A stretch of 64,000 bases of DNA from Chloroflexota bacterium. Lineage in GTDB: Bacteria > Chloroflexota > Dehalococcoidia > UBA2979. The DNA lies in the NCBI GenBank assembly GCA_027593235.1, contig JAQCIU010000005.1, forward strand, positions 1 through 64,000. Reading direction: 5' to 3'. Shown here one piece after another: positions 10,839-16,673 of the stretch. The notes under the pieces were generated by a model. The model was given only the letters and a program-made list of their open reading frames with translations. It had not been told where the DNA came from and ran no database searches. A program made the position numbers and the translations under genes. Every line of letters starts with the position of its first letter. Positions within the stretch are counted from its first letter, which is position 1.

Positions 10839-11153
10839 ATGGCCGAGCAACCACCACCAACGCCTGCCGCTCTGCTCCCCGCCTGCGACCGTTGCCAGCG
10901 CGCGGCCCGCTACCGCGGCGCTCGAGGTCAGGCCGTCGTCCCGCTCTGCGCGCGCCACTTCGTGCAGTCGCGGACCACCCTCCGTCGCGCCGCCGCGACC
11001 GCCCTCGTCGTCGGCACGATCCTCACGGCGTTGAACCAGGGCGACCTGCTCATGACCGGTAACGCCACCGGCGCCATGTGGTGGAAAATCCCGCTCACCT
11101 ACCTCGTCCCCTTCTGCGTCACCGTCTGGGGCGCCCTCACCCGCGCCGACTGA
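10839..11153 (+). CDS. NrtS-like small membrane protein with N-terminal CxxC-x17-CxxH motif
   Basis: ALVVGTILTALNQGD and KIPLTYLVPFCV resemble the NrtS family; CACACT-N6-ATG. Confidence 0.7.
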   Translation: MAEQPPPTPAALLPACDRCQRAARYRGARGQAVVPLCARHFVQSRTTLRRAAATALVVGTILTALNQGDLLMTGNATGAMWWKIPLTYLVPFCVTVWGALTRAD

Positions 11154-11333
11154 CACCCGCTCACGATTGACGACGTGAAACACCGTGACAGCTCGAAAGC
11201 GCACGGCGTCAGCTGATACACAGCGCTCTGAAAGCGCTATCGTGGTCAGTGTTCGGTGAGATACCGCGATGTCTGAGGGCGCTCGCCTGGCCAACACGTT
11301 TGGCTCGGGCACACGCCCCGACGAGGTGGATCG

Positions 11334-12783
11334 ATGCGCGCCGCGCTGCCGTCGCTGCTCCCCGTGCTCTTCGTCCTCGCCTGTAGCTCGGGCTCCGTCT
11401 CCGGAACCTTCGACGCAGGTCCGGCCGACAGCTTTCCGCCGGCATCGGTCACCACATTCGCGGACCGTACCGAGGTCCACAGAACCACGCTCGAGGGCTC
11501 AACCGGCGATCAACTCCCCGGCGGTGATCTGGTATTTTCACCTCGTCCGCCTCGAATCGGGCGACTTCCTCGCCCTGAACGCAGACGACACCCACTCCGG
11601 CTGTCGCACCATCTGGGATCCCGACGCCGACGCCTACGGGATCCAGGATTCCGGCACCCCTGCCGGCTGGTTCCGCGACCCCTGCCACGGCGCGATGTAC
11701 GACCAACGAGGAATGCGCGTCTTCGGCCCCGCCCCGCGTGACCTCGATCGCTACCCCGTCGAAGTCCGCGACGGCCACGTCTACGTCACCCTCTCCGCCG
11801 ACGCCCTCATCCCCGGCAAGCTCCGTGTCGAATTCGTCGATCCGAACGCCACCCCGACCCCCGGCCGCTCACCTCAACCAACCGCCACCCGTTCCAGCTT
11901 CCTCGAGACCAGCACACCGACGGCGACCCCGACGCCCACGAGTCCTTCCGTGGGCACCCCAACGCCCGCCATGCCCGGTGCCGACCCTGACACCGGCGCC
12001 CCCTGGAGCGCCGCCGACCTCCTCCGCTCCATCGACGCGAACGACATCCACGTCCAGCCCACCGGACGCACCTTCGCCTGCGCCCAGGTCAACGGACTCC
12101 CCGGCGCCGAGTACGGCGGCGACGCCCCGTTCATCCTCTGGGTCTACCCGTCCGAGCAAGCTGCCGCCGAGGAGTGGATCGTCTATTCGTACGAAGCCCT
12201 GCACCCCGTGCTTGAGTGCGACCGTGCTCCGGCACGGATCTATCGGCAGGGCAACATGGTGCTCTGGACGCCCGCCGGTGAGGCCTTCTCGACGCAGTCG
12301 CTGCGGTCTGCCGAGATCTTCCTCGGCCTCCCTGGGGGACCGCTGCCGTCGGAAATCCACCAGTTCGCGCTCGTCCCGCCTGCGACCGGTGCGCCACTCG
12401 GCGCTGGCAACCTGCTCGATCAGCTTGAGTCAGCGGGCCTGATCTACGTTCCCTATGAGCAGCCCGGCTGTCCGTCCGGCGCTTCAACCGTCTCGCTCCA
12501 GTGGATGGCGGGCCCGCTCACCCTTGAAAGCCGCGACGATGTCAGCTTCCAACTCTGGGTCTTCCCCTCGATCGCCGATCTCGAGGCCGAGTGGCAACTC
12601 GGGGTGAATGGCCGCATGGGCGCTGCAGGCGTCCACAGTTCGCGCTACGCCGACTGCGACTACCAGGGCGCCAGCATCTATCGCAACGCCAACATGCTCC
12701 TGATGGTCAGCGACTCCGTCGTTAGCCAGCATCCGCAGGTGACCATGCAGATCGTCGATGCCTTCTTGGCGCTCCGCCCGTAG
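11334..12783 (+). CDS. Secreted Rieske-like lipoprotein with P/T linker and two repeated domains; +1 frameshift at 11535-11538
   Basis: GAGGTG RBS, ATG and lipobox (LFVLAC) lie in one frame; DTHSGC...DPCHG...GPAPRDL and the rest lie in the +1 frame; the frames join at GTA TTT T CAC. Confidence 0.7.
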
Positions 12784-12795
12784 CGCCGCGGCACC

Positions 12796-13188
12796 TCACT
12801 CCGTCAGCCGTTCGAACGCGATGCTCGCAGCCAGCCCCCACCCCGCCAGCAGCGCTCCCATCAACACCACCTGCCCCGAACGAACCAGCGCGTTCGTCAC
12901 CTCGAACCGCCAGTCCTCCGCGATGTGCATCAGGTAGAACACCGCCAGCACCACCGCAGGCGCCACCGCCGCGATCTCGCCCCACGGCTGCGGAATCGTC
13001 ACCGCGTCACCCAGCTCCGAAACGATTAGATACGCCGCGAACCCCGCCAGGACCCACGCTCCCAGCCGCGCCGAATCCGGTGACAGCCGCACCTCCGCGA
13101 CCCGATCGCCCGCCCGCACCCCCGCGAACAACAGCGCCGCCGCCACCACCGCCAGCCCCCACGGCCACACCGACTCCAGGTTGTCCAT
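12796..13188 (-). CDS. Hypothetical 4-TM membrane protein
   Basis: GGAGGGG RBS, ATG 13188, four hydrophobic segments. Confidence 0.65.
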   Translation of the reverse strand: MDNLESVWPWGLAVVAAALLFAGVRAGDRVAEVRLSPDSARLGAWVLAGFAAYLIVSELGDAVTIPQPWGEIAAVAPAVVLAVFYLMHIAEDWRFEVTNALVRSGQVVLMGALLAGWGLAASIAFERLTE

Positions 13189-13217
13189 CACCCCTCCGGC
13201 AGGAACTTCGCCTCGCG

Positions 13218-13322
13218 CGCTGCCCGATCCCGATTGCTCACTGCACCGCACCCGCGGCCCGCTCCCGGTCGCCCAATCCACCGTTCTCGCGGCCTGCTAC
13301 CCGTCGCCCACTCCACAGCGCT
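13218..13322. repeat. Three degenerate 35-bp tandem repeats
   Basis: Units 13218-13252, 13253-13287, 13288-13322; units 2/3 are 28/35 and units 1/2 are 25/35 identical by hand. Confidence 0.75.
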
Positions 13323-13499: not shown

Positions 13500-14027
13500 A
13501 TGCAACTCACCCTCTACGCCCCCGACGTCACCTGCGAGCACTGCATCGCCACCATCCAGAAAGCCGTCGGCACCGTCGACGGCGCGACCTTCGTTTCCGG
13601 CGATCCGGATGGCAAGTCCTTCGTCATCGAGGTCGCGAGCGGAGCGGTGATCGACCGCGTCGCCGCCGCAACCGAGGCCGAGGGCTACCCGCTCGGCGAC
13701 GCAGCCCCGGCCGCGGAACACGGCGGCACCGCCGCCGACCCGAACTGGGTACCGACCTACACCGTGACCGGCACCGACAAGGGCGCCGACATCAACTACG
13801 CCTGCCCGTGTAGTTGCACCGCCGGCTTCGGGCTCGACCGCGCCGTCGCCGATCAGCACGCCGAGGGCTGCTGCTGCGGCCGCCAGATGCTCGTCGCCCC
13901 GACCGACGCCGAGGCGCGACTGAAGGCCGACCTCAGCAGCGGCGAGTACCGCTTCAACCTCCAGACGATCGAGATGCCGTGGGGCCAGCCAATGCAGGCC
14001 GCCATCGCCATCCCGGTCGAGGCCTAA
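13500..14027 (+). CDS. CopZ-like HMA domain fused to an unrecognised Cys-rich domain
   Basis: DVTCEHC HMA motif; C-terminal CPCSC and CCC motifs; AGGAGG RBS. Confidence 0.85.
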   Translation: MQLTLYAPDVTCEHCIATIQKAVGTVDGATFVSGDPDGKSFVIEVASGAVIDRVAAATEAEGYPLGDAAPAAEHGGTAADPNWVPTYTVTGTDKGADINYACPCSCTAGFGLDRAVADQHAEGCCCGRQMLVAPTDAEARLKADLSSGEYRFNLQTIEMPWGQPMQAAIAIPVEA

Positions 14028-14032
14028 GCCAC

Positions 14033-14296
14033 ATGGATGGCGGCACACACGACGATGTCCTGAAGCGCCTCGCCTACATCGAGGGGCACTTGCGCGGTGT
14101 CCGCAAGATGGTCGAAGAGGATCAGTACTGCGTGGATGTCCTGAAGCAGACCTACGCGATTCGCCGCGCCATCGAAAAGATGGAGGCGAAGATGCTGAAC
14201 GGGCATCTCCACCACTGTGTCGTCGAGGGCATCTCACGCGGCGACACGGGCGTCCTCGACGAACTGTCCGAGCTGTACGAACTGGCGAACAAGTAG
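14033..14296 (+). CDS. csoR: Copper-sensing transcriptional repressor
   Basis: [28 protein letters not shown]...HLHHC gives the C-H-C ligand set. Confidence 0.92.
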
Positions 14297-14312: not shown

Positions 14313-16673
14313 ATGACCACCGACACCGAGTCTGTAACTCCGGAGGCCCCCAGCGGGGTGGCCTCCGGATCGCTGCGTTTCGACGTCCGCGGAATGACCT
14401 GCGCGTCCTGCGTCCGCCGCGTCGAAAAGGCGCTGTCCTCGGTGGATGGAGTGACCGCGGCGCGCGTGAACCTGGCGACCGAGGAAGCAAGCATCGAAGC
14501 CGCGGGCGTGCCGCTCGACGCGTTGCGCGCCGCCGTCGATCGCGCGGGCTACGACCTGCTGGTCTCCGACCGCGAGGACGAGGGCGCGCGCGACCGCCTC
14601 GAGGCAGAGCGCCGCGCGGAGTACGAGCTGCTCCGCCGCAAGACGATCGTCGCCGGTGTCATCGCCGGGTTCCTCGTCGGGTTTATGGCCCTCAATCACT
14701 TCATAGGCGCCTTCCACGACATACCGCGCTGGTTCCTGCACCCGCTCTTCTTCGCACTGGCGGTGCCGGTGCAGTTCTGGGCGGGCTGGCAGTTCTACGC
14801 CGGCACATGGCGGGTCGGGCGCCACGGCGCGACGGATATGAACACACTGATCGCCGTCGGTACCTCGGCGGCGTTCGGCTACTCGATCGTCGCGACGTTC
14901 CTGCCCCAGGTGTTCGAGTCGGTCGAAGGCCTCGAGGGTGCGGTCTTCTTCGATACCTCCAGCGCGATCATCTTCTTCGTGCTGCTGGGCCGGCTGCTGG
15001 AGGCGCGCGCCAAGGGCCGCACCTCGGACGCCGTGCGCGCGCTGATCGCGCTCCGTCCGCAGACCGCGCGGGTAATCGAGGACGGCGAGGAGTACGAGAT
15101 TCCGGTCCGCGCGGTCCAGGCCGGCGACATCGTCCTGATCCGCCCCGGCGAGCAGATCCCGGTCGATGGCGAGGTGACCGAAGGCACCTCCGCGGTCGAC
15201 GAATCGATGCTCACCGGTGAGTCCGTGCCGGTCGCCAAGCACGCGGGTGAAGACGTGTTCGGCGCGACGCTGAACACCTCCGGGATGCTGAAGGTCCGCG
15301 CGACGGCCGTGGGCGCCGACTCCGCGCTGGCGCGCATCATCAAGCTCGTCGAGGACGCGCAGGGTTCGAAGGCACCGATCCAGGGCCTCGCTGATCGCAT
15401 CGCATCGATCTTCGTACCGGTGGTCTTTGGCATCGCCGCGCTGACGCTGGTCGCGTGGCTGGTCTTCGGTCCCGATCCGGCGCTCACCTTCGGCATCCTC
15501 AACGCCGTCGCGGTCTTGATCGTCGCCTGCCCATGCGCCCTCGGTCTCGCAACGCCGACAGCAATCATGGTGGGAACGGGACGCGCCGCTCAGCACGGCA
15601 TCCTGATCCGAGACGCCGAGGCGCTCCAGCACGCGCGGTCGATCGACACGGTGCTCCTGGACAAGACCGGCACGATCACCGAAGGCCGTCCCGAGGTGGT
15701 CAGCGTCTGGCTCCTGGACGGCGCCCCGGTGAATGCCGACGAACTAATCCGACTTGTCGCCTCCGCGGAGCGCGGCTCGGAGCACCCGTACGCGGCAGCG
15801 ATCGTCCGCGAGGCGGAGCTGCGCGCGGTGAACCTCGACTGGCCGCTCACCTTCGAGGCGGTCGCCGGCGAAGGCGTGATCGCGCGCCTCAGCGCCCACG
15901 AACTGCTGGTAGGCAACGACGAACTGCTCGGAAGCCGCGGCGTGCCGGCGCCCGGACGCGCGACCCTCGATGGCCTCGCCAACGCCGCCGGGCTGCGGGG
16001 CGAAACACCGATCCGCGTGGCGATCGACGGCGAAGCGGCAGCGCTGATCGCCGTCGCCGATCAGGTGCGCGAGGGTGCGGCCGCCGGTATCGAGCGGCTG
16101 CGCAAGCTCGGCGTGCGGGTCGTGATGCTCACCGGCGATCAGCAGCAGACGGCTGATGCCGTCGCACGCAGCGTCGGCATCACCGAGGTGGTCGCGCAGG
16201 TGCGGCCGGAGGACAAGGCGGAGCTGGTGCGCCGCTACCAGTCCGAGGGCAGCACAGTGGCAATGGTCGGCGACGGCATCAACGACGCGCCCGCGCTGGC
16301 CGCCGCAGACGTCGGGATCGCGGTCGGGACGGGCACGGACGTCGCACTCGAGGCGGCCCCGGTCACCCTCGTGCGCCCCGACATCGCCCGGATCGCGACG
16401 ACGATCGCGATCAGCCGCGCGACGATGCGCACGATGTGGCAGAACCTCGGCTGGGCCTTCGCATATAACGTGGCGCTGATCCCGATCGCGGCGGGTCTCG
16501 GCTACGTCTTATTCAGCCCGGTGCTCGATGGGGCGGCGGTGCCGGCGGTCCTCCAACCGATCTTCGGCGAGCGCGGGTTCCTCAACCCGATCGTCGCCGC
16601 GGCGGCGATGGCCTTCTCTTCGGTGTCGGTGATGACCAACTCGCTCCGCCTGCGAGGAGCATCGATCGAATAG
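14313..16673 (+). CDS. copA: Cu(I)-translocating P1B-1 ATPase
   Basis: [42 protein letters not shown] and MAFSS motifs. Confidence 0.96.

Follow-up and report, generated by a model that had tools for sequence, protein, structure and literature searches.

A frameshifted lipoprotein gene in Chloroflexota and its Rieske-fold domain without cluster cysteines

A Rieske domain is usually taken for a redox centre, and members of the family considered here are named 'Rieske Fe-S protein' by automatic annotation. In the window (the whole stretch of 64,000 nt from a Chloroflexota bacterium that was analysed), one gene carries such a domain with neither of the ligand motifs C-x-H-x-G-C and C-x-C-H, as Asp stands in both ligand Cys places. 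What is left at the former cluster site, and does the gene still specify the exported lipoprotein that a first-pass annotation had seen in it? The motifs on which that annotation was built, DTHSGC, DPCHG and GPAPRDL, are all in place in one frame (Table 1); both Asp codons are GAC, two substitutions from TGC, and both His and both second-position Cys are retained. The answer that we consider probable is that the locus is a frameshift-inactivated gene for a Sec-exported lipoprotein, whose intact domain is a disulfide-stapled, cofactor-free Rieske-fold module derived from a respiratory Rieske subunit.

Parts of the gene and its reading frames

The Rieske boxes are encoded by ORF 11269..12783 (+ strand, 504 aa), and the lipobox signal lies in a different frame, in ORF 11334..11741. 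To read from the signal MRAALPSLLPVLFVLAC (11334-11384) into the Rieske-like domain, one T must be passed over in the TTTT run at 11535-11538. Thus, under translation table 11, the window does not specify a lipoprotein with a Rieske-like domain. By its sequence pattern, the lipobox is VLAC with Cys17 and without a twin-arginine motif; a Cys occupies this place in 11/11 N-terminally complete sequences of alignment A1. The first strands of the domain are recognizable in the frame of the signal, where hmm positions 2-45 of the family profile match ORF 11277-11738; the AlphaFold model of the intact ortholog P0001 has strands at residues 26-31, 39-44 and 47-49. The first-pass annotation had attached a lipobox signal without twin arginine to the domain. 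The signal type stood, and intact homologs likewise have either a lipobox or just a hydrophobic anchor, not a twin-arginine signal; the attachment did not, as the signal here is in another frame than the domain.

Table 1. Coordinates of the lipoprotein gene parts and the copper genes in the window
Feature	Position	Strand	Remarks
Signal peptide and lipobox MRAALPSLLPVLFVLAC; lipid-attachment Cys codon 11382-11384	11334..11384	+	frame 0
Mature start and first three beta-strands (FDAGP…SVTTF…DLVF)	11385..11537	+	frame 0, read-through
TTTT run with one extra T (+1 frameshift)	11535..11538	+	cuts signal and first strands off the remaining gene
Remaining Rieske-like domain	11539..11826	+	frame 1; alignment, profile, solved-chain comparison
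Box 1, DTHSGC (gac-acc-cac-tcc-ggc-tgt)	11587-11604	+	frame of ORF 11269..12783
Box 2, DPCHG (gac-ccc-tgc-cac-ggc)	11677-11691	+	frame of ORF 11269..12783
Pro-loop GPAPRDL	11725-11745	+	frame of ORF 11269..12783
Pro/Thr-rich linker	11827..11994	+	P0001 model pLDDT <50 at residues 174-221
C-terminal repeat 1, alpha/beta domain (…FILWVYPS…EW…), no known family	11995..12372	+	alignment, model
C-terminal repeat 2, same alpha/beta domain, including stop codon	12373..12783	+	alignment, model
CopZ-like HMA protein, Cys-rich C-terminal extension	13500..14027	+	78-81% identical to L020:8185-8781 and L053:2120-2767
CsoR/RicR-type copper-sensing repressor	14033..14296	+	PF02583 E 8.1e-25; 84-86% identical in L020 and L053
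CopA, copper-exporting P1B-type ATPase	14313..16673	+	start inferred, ORF open from 14217; 84% identical in L020/L053

In bacterial lipoproteins, signal and mature protein share one frame. This is the case in P0001 and P0162 (483 aa, 96% identical), which have a continuous frame, and in strain X4 (~95-97% identical), where one base fewer at 11535 restores the frame as in P0001; in the window, in contrast, the two lie in different frames. Contigs of X1 and X2 (study P1) and of X3 (study P2) carry the 4-T allele with zero differences from the window at this place, the runs dating from 2016 and 2023. The same T in contigs of runs from two studies rules out a one-off assembly error, and the window gene is frameshifted. 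Compared with X4, it has 15 synonymous and 18 non-synonymous changed codons among the differences listed (8 differences fall outside that list), which shows weak constraint only.

The public gene model for the exact window sequence (P0161, 419 aa) starts at GTG 11524 and is missing the signal peptide as well as the three N-terminal beta-strands of the Rieske-like domain. Could the gene be alive all the same, either through a +1 ribosomal slip on UUU_U, ahead of the rare UCA codon, that would yield some full-length lipoprotein, or through a function of the 419-aa product itself? After a +1 slip on TTTT, tRNA-Phe would re-pair perfectly, TCA is rare in the genome (2.76 per 1000 codons, 4.9% of Ser codons), the frame downstream of the run is still open for 416 codons, and the 4-T allele recurs in the two studies mentioned above. 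However, the frame is continuous in X4, P0001, P0162 and the other N-terminally complete homologs, which shows that the shift is not conserved, and the GTG product would have to do without export signal and three strands of its beta-sandwich. We therefore regard a living gene as very unlikely.

Homology and fold of the Rieske-like domain

The family profile aligned its 'rDpHlGC' to 'vCTHLGC' and its 'FrDPChG' to 'FeCPCHG' of solved Rieske chains (9rk4_A, E 5.1e-17; 9rk3_A, 2.2e-15; 8hn2_A, 1.3e-13), so that the positions of DTHSGC and DPCHG are homologous to the Rieske boxes; D85, H87, D115 and H118 of the intact form occupy the four Rieske ligand positions. The AF2 model of P0001 reached a pLDDT of 85-97 over most of the N-domain. 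Foldseek gave 56 hits for it at E <= 0.001, and the best were Rieske soluble domains, including 9rk4_A (E 1.4e-6, TMt 0.74), 8hn2_A (E 3.3e-6), 9rk3 and 5cxm_A. According to this model, the N-domain fold of the intact form is Rieske, of the bc/b6f type, and the match to solved Rieske domains bears out the cluster-free Rieske fold that was one of two options considered initially. Pfam scores stayed under the cut-offs: against PF00355 (gathering cut-off 20.3), the 504-aa ORF scored 13.3 bits and the segment 11536-11826 scored 17.2 bits, and PF13806 gave 13.5 and 17.6 bits, under its cut-off of 27. At E <= 0.01, PF00355 was matched by 37/52 family members.

The nearest known system is the PetC/QcrA Rieske subunit of cytochrome bc1/b6f (PDB 9rk4, 8hn2, 5cxm), with which the domain has the fold and clear sequence homology in common. 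Shared are the disulfide Cys pair, G-W-F-x-x-P-C-H-G, G-P-A-P-R, the N-terminal membrane anchor and the extracytoplasmic location. Unlike PetC/QcrA, both ligand Cys are Asp, the signal is Sec/lipobox instead of Tat, no cytochrome b gene is nearby, extra C-terminal domains follow, and the Pfam score stays under the gathering cut-off. A canonical Rieske paralog is encoded in the same genome (CPHLGCTVPW…CPCHGSTY…GPAPRSM), with the Tat motif SRRNFLRA and adjoining cytochrome b and cytochrome c genes. In a search of the 89.7%-complete assembly, cytochrome b (PF00033, PF13631) was absent from contig C18, to which the window belongs; the sole matches are on contig C74 (24014-24568), adjoining the canonical Rieske gene, in agreement with the initial remark that no cytochrome b gene is adjacent to the lipoprotein gene. 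With both cluster-ligating cysteines lost, the domain cannot hold a Rieske [2Fe-2S] centre.

The C-terminal repeats had zero Pfam matches even at E 10, and DUF6810, an Atlas lead with a score of 0.91, was not confirmed by hmmscan. Foldseek against the PDB found nothing at E <= 0.001, and the best VIA-align hits, 4esq_A (PknH sensor domain; Z 6.0, rmsd 3.8 over 103 residues) and 1vr8_A (Z 5.6), were below the usual noise level of 7-8. The C-terminal domain was found in 2/401 class-sample genomes and in 7/99 family genomes. A phylum-sample search with the A5 profile, which covered the whole protein, matched 146/401 genomes, mostly reflecting Rieske domains; among the rows listed, which leave out 25 of the matches, only G000 matched past profile position ~240. 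Three unpublished genomes (G615, G446 and G542) were part of this sample, and none of the conclusions depends on them.

The intact form, represented by a 96% identical protein, consists of a Sec-type lipobox signal, the N-terminal Rieske-fold domain, the Pro/Thr linker and two copies of the alpha/beta domain of no known family. We propose that the ancestor of the Rieske-fold domain was the Rieske subunit in the organism's own cytochrome bc-type complex, and that the protein is exported unfolded. The retained disulfide pair may staple the two former cluster-binding loops, and Asp, Asn, Ser or Glu, plus His or Arg where kept, may fill the cluster cavity and form hydrogen bonds in it. We infer a cofactor-free, membrane-proximal module, structural or binding, that would hold no metal at all.

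The former cluster site and the neighbouring copper genes

An unbiased profile search of 1.84 billion (1.84e9) representatives returned 8084 matches, and residues were counted in the best 150 of these. Among them, 136 domains had no cluster cysteines. The box-1 ligand position was D in 86, S in 26, C in 14 and A in 9 of the best 150, and the box-2 ligand position was D in 69, N in 30, E in 20 and C in 13. Cys was kept at the disulfide positions in 128/150 and 137/150, and His at the ligand positions in 95/150 and 86/150; the commonest replacement of His1 was Arg (19/150). Among the aligned relatives of the window's domain, Cys occurs at either ligand position in 0/13, and C90 and C117 are invariant in 13/13 sequences. 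Decay of the ligand residues in the window copy is ruled out, since all relatives share them, and the initial view that the Cys-to-Asp change is not decay is upheld by these close homologs as well as by the 136 domains.

A tree built from the 136 non-canonical rows requires at least 30 changes for His1, 30 for His2, 7 for Cys1 and 7 for Cys2. Both His are present in 52 rows, one in 52 and none in 32, and no coupling of His1 and His2 showed in an underpowered test with only 4 independent pairs on supported branches. As far as sequence conservation can tell, the two predicted "disulfide" cysteines are the stable positions and both His are labile. The conserved Asp2His2 metal site that the first-pass annotation had offered as its other option is not supported in that form: the His positions are the least stable of the six, both being kept in only the 52 rows mentioned, roughly one third of the family has S, A, N or T instead of the box-1 Asp, and Asn at box 2 is frequent (30/150).

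Set against a cofactor-free module are the box-1 Asp, invariant in the 13 relatives, the presence of both His in 8/13 and the D/N/E residue of box 2, which is nearly fixed (120/136 non-canonical rows, 8 tree changes). Such conservation may stem from a role as ligands and not from packing.

The genes downstream touch on the same subject. Immediately downstream of the lipoprotein gene come copZ-like–csoR–copA, in the window and also in L020 and L053, two related loci in which the CopZ-like HMA gene is again the next gene. This position would suit an extracytoplasmic metal-binding protein. In the D-x-H…[D/N]-x-C-H subgroups, which include the window's intact form, the former cluster site might bind one metal ion, Cu(II), Zn(II), Fe(II) or Mn(II), via both His together with one or two carboxylate or amide side chains, and the lipoprotein might serve extracytoplasmic metal handling, perhaps of copper. 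The four residues named above at the ligand positions of the intact form would fit such a site, and so would the 35/136 non-canonical representatives with both polar residues and both His, the commonest full signatures, DHC-NCH (23) and DHC-DCH (7), the DHC-DCH signature in 8/13 rows of the window's well-supported clade, and the cop genes next to three loci. Yet His has changed to R, G, E or T in 5/13 of the same clade, each His changes ~30 times on the family tree, and Arg, the commonest His1 substitute, is no metal binder. With CopA 84% identical, the three cop-linked loci are closely related, and plain inheritance may account for their shared gene order. Within the stretches examined of L122-L126, five more loci that encode the C-terminal domain or the N-domain, cop genes are absent, and the other family loci scanned have unrelated contexts and no cop linkage. 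We consider a single-metal site unlikely, if worth keeping in mind.

The invariant metal-ligand residues by which a copper-handling protein of a cop operon would be recognized were not found, His varying both in the clade and in the family. It is doubtful that the Rieske scaffold has been repurposed here into a Sec-exported, disulfide-held mononuclear site with two His and one or two Asp/Asn, and that the cop-linked branch is an undescribed extracytoplasmic metal binder or sensor. If it is true that the D-H…D/N-H subgroups bind a single metal ion, this would be a natural metal site of a new sort, built on a classical Fe-S scaffold.

A last candidate for the site is the [2Fe-2S] cluster itself, ligated by the aspartates in place of the two cysteines. 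The loop architecture is retained, as are both His, and Fe-S clusters with carboxylate ligands occur in other proteins. We know of no Rieske-type cluster held by oxygen and nitrogen ligands only, though, and Asn, Ser, Ala and Gly occur at the same positions in many relatives. Moreover, a Sec/lipobox signal without a Tat motif means that the protein would cross the membrane unfolded, away from the cluster-assembly machinery. A retained cluster is extremely improbable, and a cofactor-free module remains the reading that we prefer for the intact form.

Spread of the family and related cluster-less domains

Loci with record titles came almost all from Chloroflexota MAGs, mostly of Dehalococcoidia. 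With at least 136 clusters at 50% identity and five paralogs in the source genome, this is a sizeable and apparently undescribed family of cluster-less Rieske-fold domains in Chloroflexota, whose members outnumber the true respiratory Rieske genes in their genomes. A whole radiation of Rieske-fold domains that cannot bind the cluster is Sec-exported here, and metabolic reconstructions of Dehalococcoidia MAGs would be distorted if its members were counted as respiratory or Fe-S genes. In this family, nature has also tested how the Rieske cluster-binding loops are kept together once the cluster is gone: the disulfide was retained and the ligand Cys became Asp, Asn or Ser. A search of the open full-text literature, with subscription journals outside its scope, returned nothing on a Cys-to-Asp Rieske family or on cluster-less Rieske proteins of Chloroflexota. 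The CxH…CxxN variant in Sulfurospirillum, as described in the available part of PMC7755780, is unrelated to the Cys-to-Asp family.

Cluster-less domains of this fold are known elsewhere. Many members of NirD, the small subunit of NADH-nitrite reductase (PF13806, Rieske_2), have a Rieske-type fold without cluster ligands, and in this the domain resembles them. NirD, however, is cytoplasmic and partners NirB, whereas here an export signal is present, PF13806 scores below its cut-off, and a nitrite reductase gene was not found among the ORFs scanned within ~10 kb. TEF5/PSB33/LIL8 of the green plastid lineage is described in the accessible portion of PMC12164590 as a membrane-anchored Rieske-like domain without metal-binding residues that acts through protein contacts with a membrane complex, a precedent for the module proposed here. 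The likeness, one of description only, lies in a membrane-tethered Rieske-like domain without iron or Fe-S ligands; TEF5/PSB33, in contrast, is eukaryotic, stroma-facing and anchored by C-terminal helices, and the same portion of that source (PMC12164590) reports no disulfide pair.

Heuristic patterns applied to the 124 N-terminally complete non-canonical rows recovered a hydrophobic stretch in 111, a lipobox in 15 and a strict Tat-like motif in 4, vs 6/12 canonical rows with the strict Tat-like motif. An N-terminal helix or lipid is the usual anchor of family members, which are often tandemly duplicated and sometimes fused to beta-propellers or other extracellular domains. Tandem copies of the domain were found in L003, L033, L044, L045, L058 and L076, and fusions to LVIVD or PD40 propellers in P0028, P0039 and P0031.

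Fold of the lipoprotein and origin of its Rieske-like domain

The DTHSGC, DPCHG and GPAPRDL motifs that a first-pass annotation had read in the lipoprotein gene are present as claimed (see table), and both Asp codons are GAC. Pfam and NCBIfam searches with the window ORF gave Rieske and PetC matches below threshold only. A profile of 52 relatives matched solved bc/b6f-type Rieske chains (9rk4_A, 5.1e-17; 9rk3_A, 2.2e-15; 8hn2_A, 1.3e-13; 5cxm_A, 6.7e-13), with boxes 1 and 2 in register and Asp opposite the ligand Cys. The AlphaFold2 model of P0001, an intact 483-aa metagenome protein 96% identical to the window gene product, was computed from a 65-row alignment and reached a mean pLDDT of 76, with N-domain blocks mostly at 85-97; Foldseek searches with this model returned Rieske soluble domains as top matches.

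Features of the lipoprotein gene and its neighbours in the window
Feature	Position	Strand	Remarks
MFS transporter			upstream of lipoprotein gene
Small NrtS-like protein	10839-11153		upstream; NrtS family (nitrate/nitrite transporter), 45.2 bits vs cut-off 25
Lipobox signal MRAALPSLLPVLFVLAC	11334-11384	+	ORF 11334..11741, frame other than that of the Rieske-like domain
DTHSGC (box 1)	11587-11604	+	frame of ORF 11269..12783
DPCHG (box 2)	11677-11691	+	frame of ORF 11269..12783
GPAPRDL	11725-11745	+	frame of ORF 11269..12783
Possible small membrane-protein ORF	12796-13281	-	161 codons, possible four helices
CopZ-like HMA protein, Cys-rich tail	13500-14027		downstream
CsoR/RicR-type repressor, then CopA ATPase			downstream of CopZ-like HMA gene

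The C-terminal half consists of two repeats of a ~125-aa alpha/beta domain with two conserved Cys each (pLDDT 70-95), for which we found no Pfam match and no convincing structural match. Few genomes encode this domain: 2 of 401 in a class-wide sample and 7 of 99 from the family. At locus L122:9006-13824 of genome G805, the repeat pair is carried by a P0007-type protein without a Rieske-like domain, and the locus includes two more degenerate Rieske-like genes at a distance of 2-4 kb.

The window's genome also encodes a canonical Rieske protein (CPHLGCTVPW…CPCHGSTY…GPAPRSM, Tat motif SRRNFLRA), whose gene on contig C74 has cytochrome b and c genes beside it. The 89.7%-complete assembly contains no cytochrome b other than this copy, and the window's contig has none, in agreement with the earlier remark that no such gene is adjacent. 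A second canonical-type Rieske gene on contig C26 (L005:1111-1635; CPHLGCAVPW…CPCHMSTY, Tat-like RRSF motif) is interrupted by an in-frame TGA, which could mean another broken Rieske gene, or else selenocysteine incorporation or read-through.

Ligand loss and export across the family

A length-restricted search recovered 14 relatives. In the 13 sequences aligned, D85, C90, P116, C117 and G119 are invariant, D115 is replaced by Asn in two, and H87 (to R, G or E) and H118 (to T, G or E) are variable in five. Scans of genome and metagenome contigs, biased in that one search pattern included [DN]PC, gave 74 loci, of which those with record titles were nearly all from Chloroflexota MAGs, Dehalococcoidia predominating. 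When 1.84 billion cluster representatives were searched by profile without such bias, 8084 matched at E <= 0.001, 72 of them at E <= 1e-30; residue classes were counted on the best 150 of the 8084. Among these 150, the box-1 ligand position is occupied by D (86), S (26), C (14), A (9) or N (4) and that of box 2 by D (69), N (30), E (20), C (13), S (7) or G (5); the disulfide cysteines are kept in 128 and 137 rows and the histidines in 95 and 86, the first His being replaced most often by Arg (19/150). Written as ligand, His and disulfide positions, the fully canonical signature CHC-CCH accounts for 12 rows, and the most frequent cluster-less ones are DHC-NCH (23), DHC-DCH (7) and DRC-DCH (7). 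The invariance of D85 and the dominance of D, S, N and E in the best 150 bear out the earlier view that the Cys-to-Asp change is not mere decay. Ligand decay confined to the window copy is ruled out, loss of the ligand Cys being a family trait.

A typical member has 150-200 aa and a single N-terminal hydrophobic anchor and is frequently found in tandem; in some members the Rieske-like domain precedes LVIVD or PD40 propellers. The window's genome carries five cluster-less copies (the window gene, three in tandem on contig C15 and one on C16) and two canonical-type ones. The helix-anchored domains of the C15 trio (L003:914-2672) are increasingly degenerate (EPVFGC…DPCHG; STHLGG…EPAHS; the third motif-less), and the trio adjoins a NAD_binding_2/DUF1932-type gene, a layout shared by loci L033 and L058.

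Canonical copies bear Tat-like motifs, whereas cluster-less copies mostly do not: calling export signals by simple patterns rather than a trained predictor, we found the strict Tat-like pattern in 6 of 12 canonical rows vs 4 of 124 N-terminally complete cluster-less rows; a hydrophobic stretch is present in 111 of the latter, and a lipobox in 15. This scarcity agrees with export without a preformed Fe-S cluster, as had been argued for the window gene, and would fit a situation in which export of the folded holo-domain is no longer needed.

Cofactor-free module or metal site

On a tree of 136 non-canonical representatives, built with the six ligand and disulfide columns omitted, each His requires a minimum of 30 changes and each disulfide Cys 7, while the D/E/N state requires 19 in box 1 and 8 in box 2. 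The His pair is complete in 52 rows, reduced to one residue in another 52 and missing altogether from 32; both Cys are lost together in 12 rows and the first alone in 8. When phylogeny was controlled for, pairs were too few to judge whether the two His are coupled. Within the clade of the window protein (13 rows, SH-aLRT 97), eight rows read DHC-DCH and five have lost a His. The first-pass annotation had proposed either a cluster-free Rieske fold or an Asp2His2 site for another metal. A four-ligand site of this kind at the former cluster position should be all-or-none and stable between orthologs, but the His positions are unstable; stability is instead shown by the disulfide and by polar side chains at both former Cys positions. 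The Asp2His2 site is thus unsupported by conservation, although the D-H…D/N-H subgroups may have such a site, with the copper-operon neighbourhood as a modest hint; a cluster-free Rieske fold, by contrast, is well supported for this family. In such a fold, polar residues of the Asp/Asn/Ser type, with His or Arg where kept, would fill the cluster cavity and satisfy its hydrogen-bond donors, and the disulfide would hold both loops together outside the cell.

A metal-related role is best argued from the linkage to a copper operon: in a genome of the same genus (L020) and on a metagenome contig (L053), genes for the lipoprotein, HMA protein, CsoR and CopA follow one another on one strand with short gaps. 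However, the three cop-linked loci are close kin, and the 11-19 kb covered at each of five other loci that carry either the C-terminal domain or the lipoprotein-type N-domain contained no cop genes. Neighbours are 78-86% identical between the window and L020/L053, vs ~50-56% for the lipoproteins. Elsewhere, family members have unrelated neighbours, among them enoyl-CoA hydratases, acyl-CoA ligases, a LuxR-glyoxalase fusion and ABC transporters.

The CopZ-like HMA copies (in L020:8185-8781 and L053:2120-2767) are 78-81% identical among the three loci, far above the adjoining lipoprotein gene, and share a conserved ~90-aa C-terminal domain (motifs NYACPC-C and EGCCCGRQ) with no match in Pfam. 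The possible membrane-protein ORF between the lipoprotein and cop genes has no counterpart in L020 and L053, where the gap is 11-142 bp. Upstream, the NrtS-family protein has a zinc-ribbon-like N-terminal extension (Cys-x2-Cys…Cys-x2-His).

Cluster-less Rieske-like domains are already known as a kind, and NirD contains one. TEF5/PSB33 of the green lineage is described as a membrane-anchored protein whose Rieske-like domain lacks the ligands for iron and Fe-S and which acts by binding photosystem subunits (PMC12164590). Unlike both, the window family is a bacterial, extracytoplasmic radiation descended from a bc-type Rieske subunit, keeps the disulfide while systematically replacing Cys by Asp, Asn or Ser, and employs the domain as a module ahead of varied extracellular domains. 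We found no published description of it in the openly available full-text literature.

Reading frame and age of the frameshift

The lipobox signal noted earlier does exist, but it does not share a reading frame with the Rieske-like domain, and the first ~85 residues of ORF 11269..12783 (+) are Arg/Pro-rich out-of-frame text. In P0001 and the likewise 483-aa, 96% identical P0162, the frame is continuous (…GGDLVFHLVRLESGD…). Where P0001 needs gta-ttt-cac, the window reads gta-tttt-cac, a single surplus T in the run 11535-11538 that shifts the frame by +1; taking TTTT as one step gives a 482-residue protein 95% identical to P0001. The public gene model for the exact window DNA (P0161, seen on 3 contigs) has 419 aa from GTG 11524, without the signal and the domain's first three strands. 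The observation in the window is real, yet this strain carries the gene in broken form.

Logan contigs of sequencing runs X1 and X2 (study P1, 2016) and X3 (study P2, 2023) show 0 differences from the window over 11200-12900, at word depths of 29.5, 14.6 and 13.4, respectively. All three are flagged as possible assembly sources, yet two studies are represented, so one run or more is independent of the assembly. Contigs drop rare variants, and a minority intact allele may exist in the population carrying the 4-T form. The related strain in run X4 differs from the window by 54 letters per 1571 aligned bases and omits one base at 11535, so that its frame is intact. Codon changes between the two comprise 15 synonymous and 18 non-synonymous ones, counted from 34 listed differences inside the gene, with 8 further differences outside this list. 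Judged from these substitutions, the lipoprotein gene appears to evolve fast, though not neutrally, under weak constraint, and the lesion looks recent.

The same-genus ortholog at L020:5780-6080 (same ORFs as L009) is split between two frames ~10 codons upstream of FHL[LV]RLESG, which could be a true lesion or an assembly artefact from strain variation; the junction resembles an imperfect 22-nt tandem duplication across a C7 run, with one frame reading PPTLEGD and the following one PPTSEGD.
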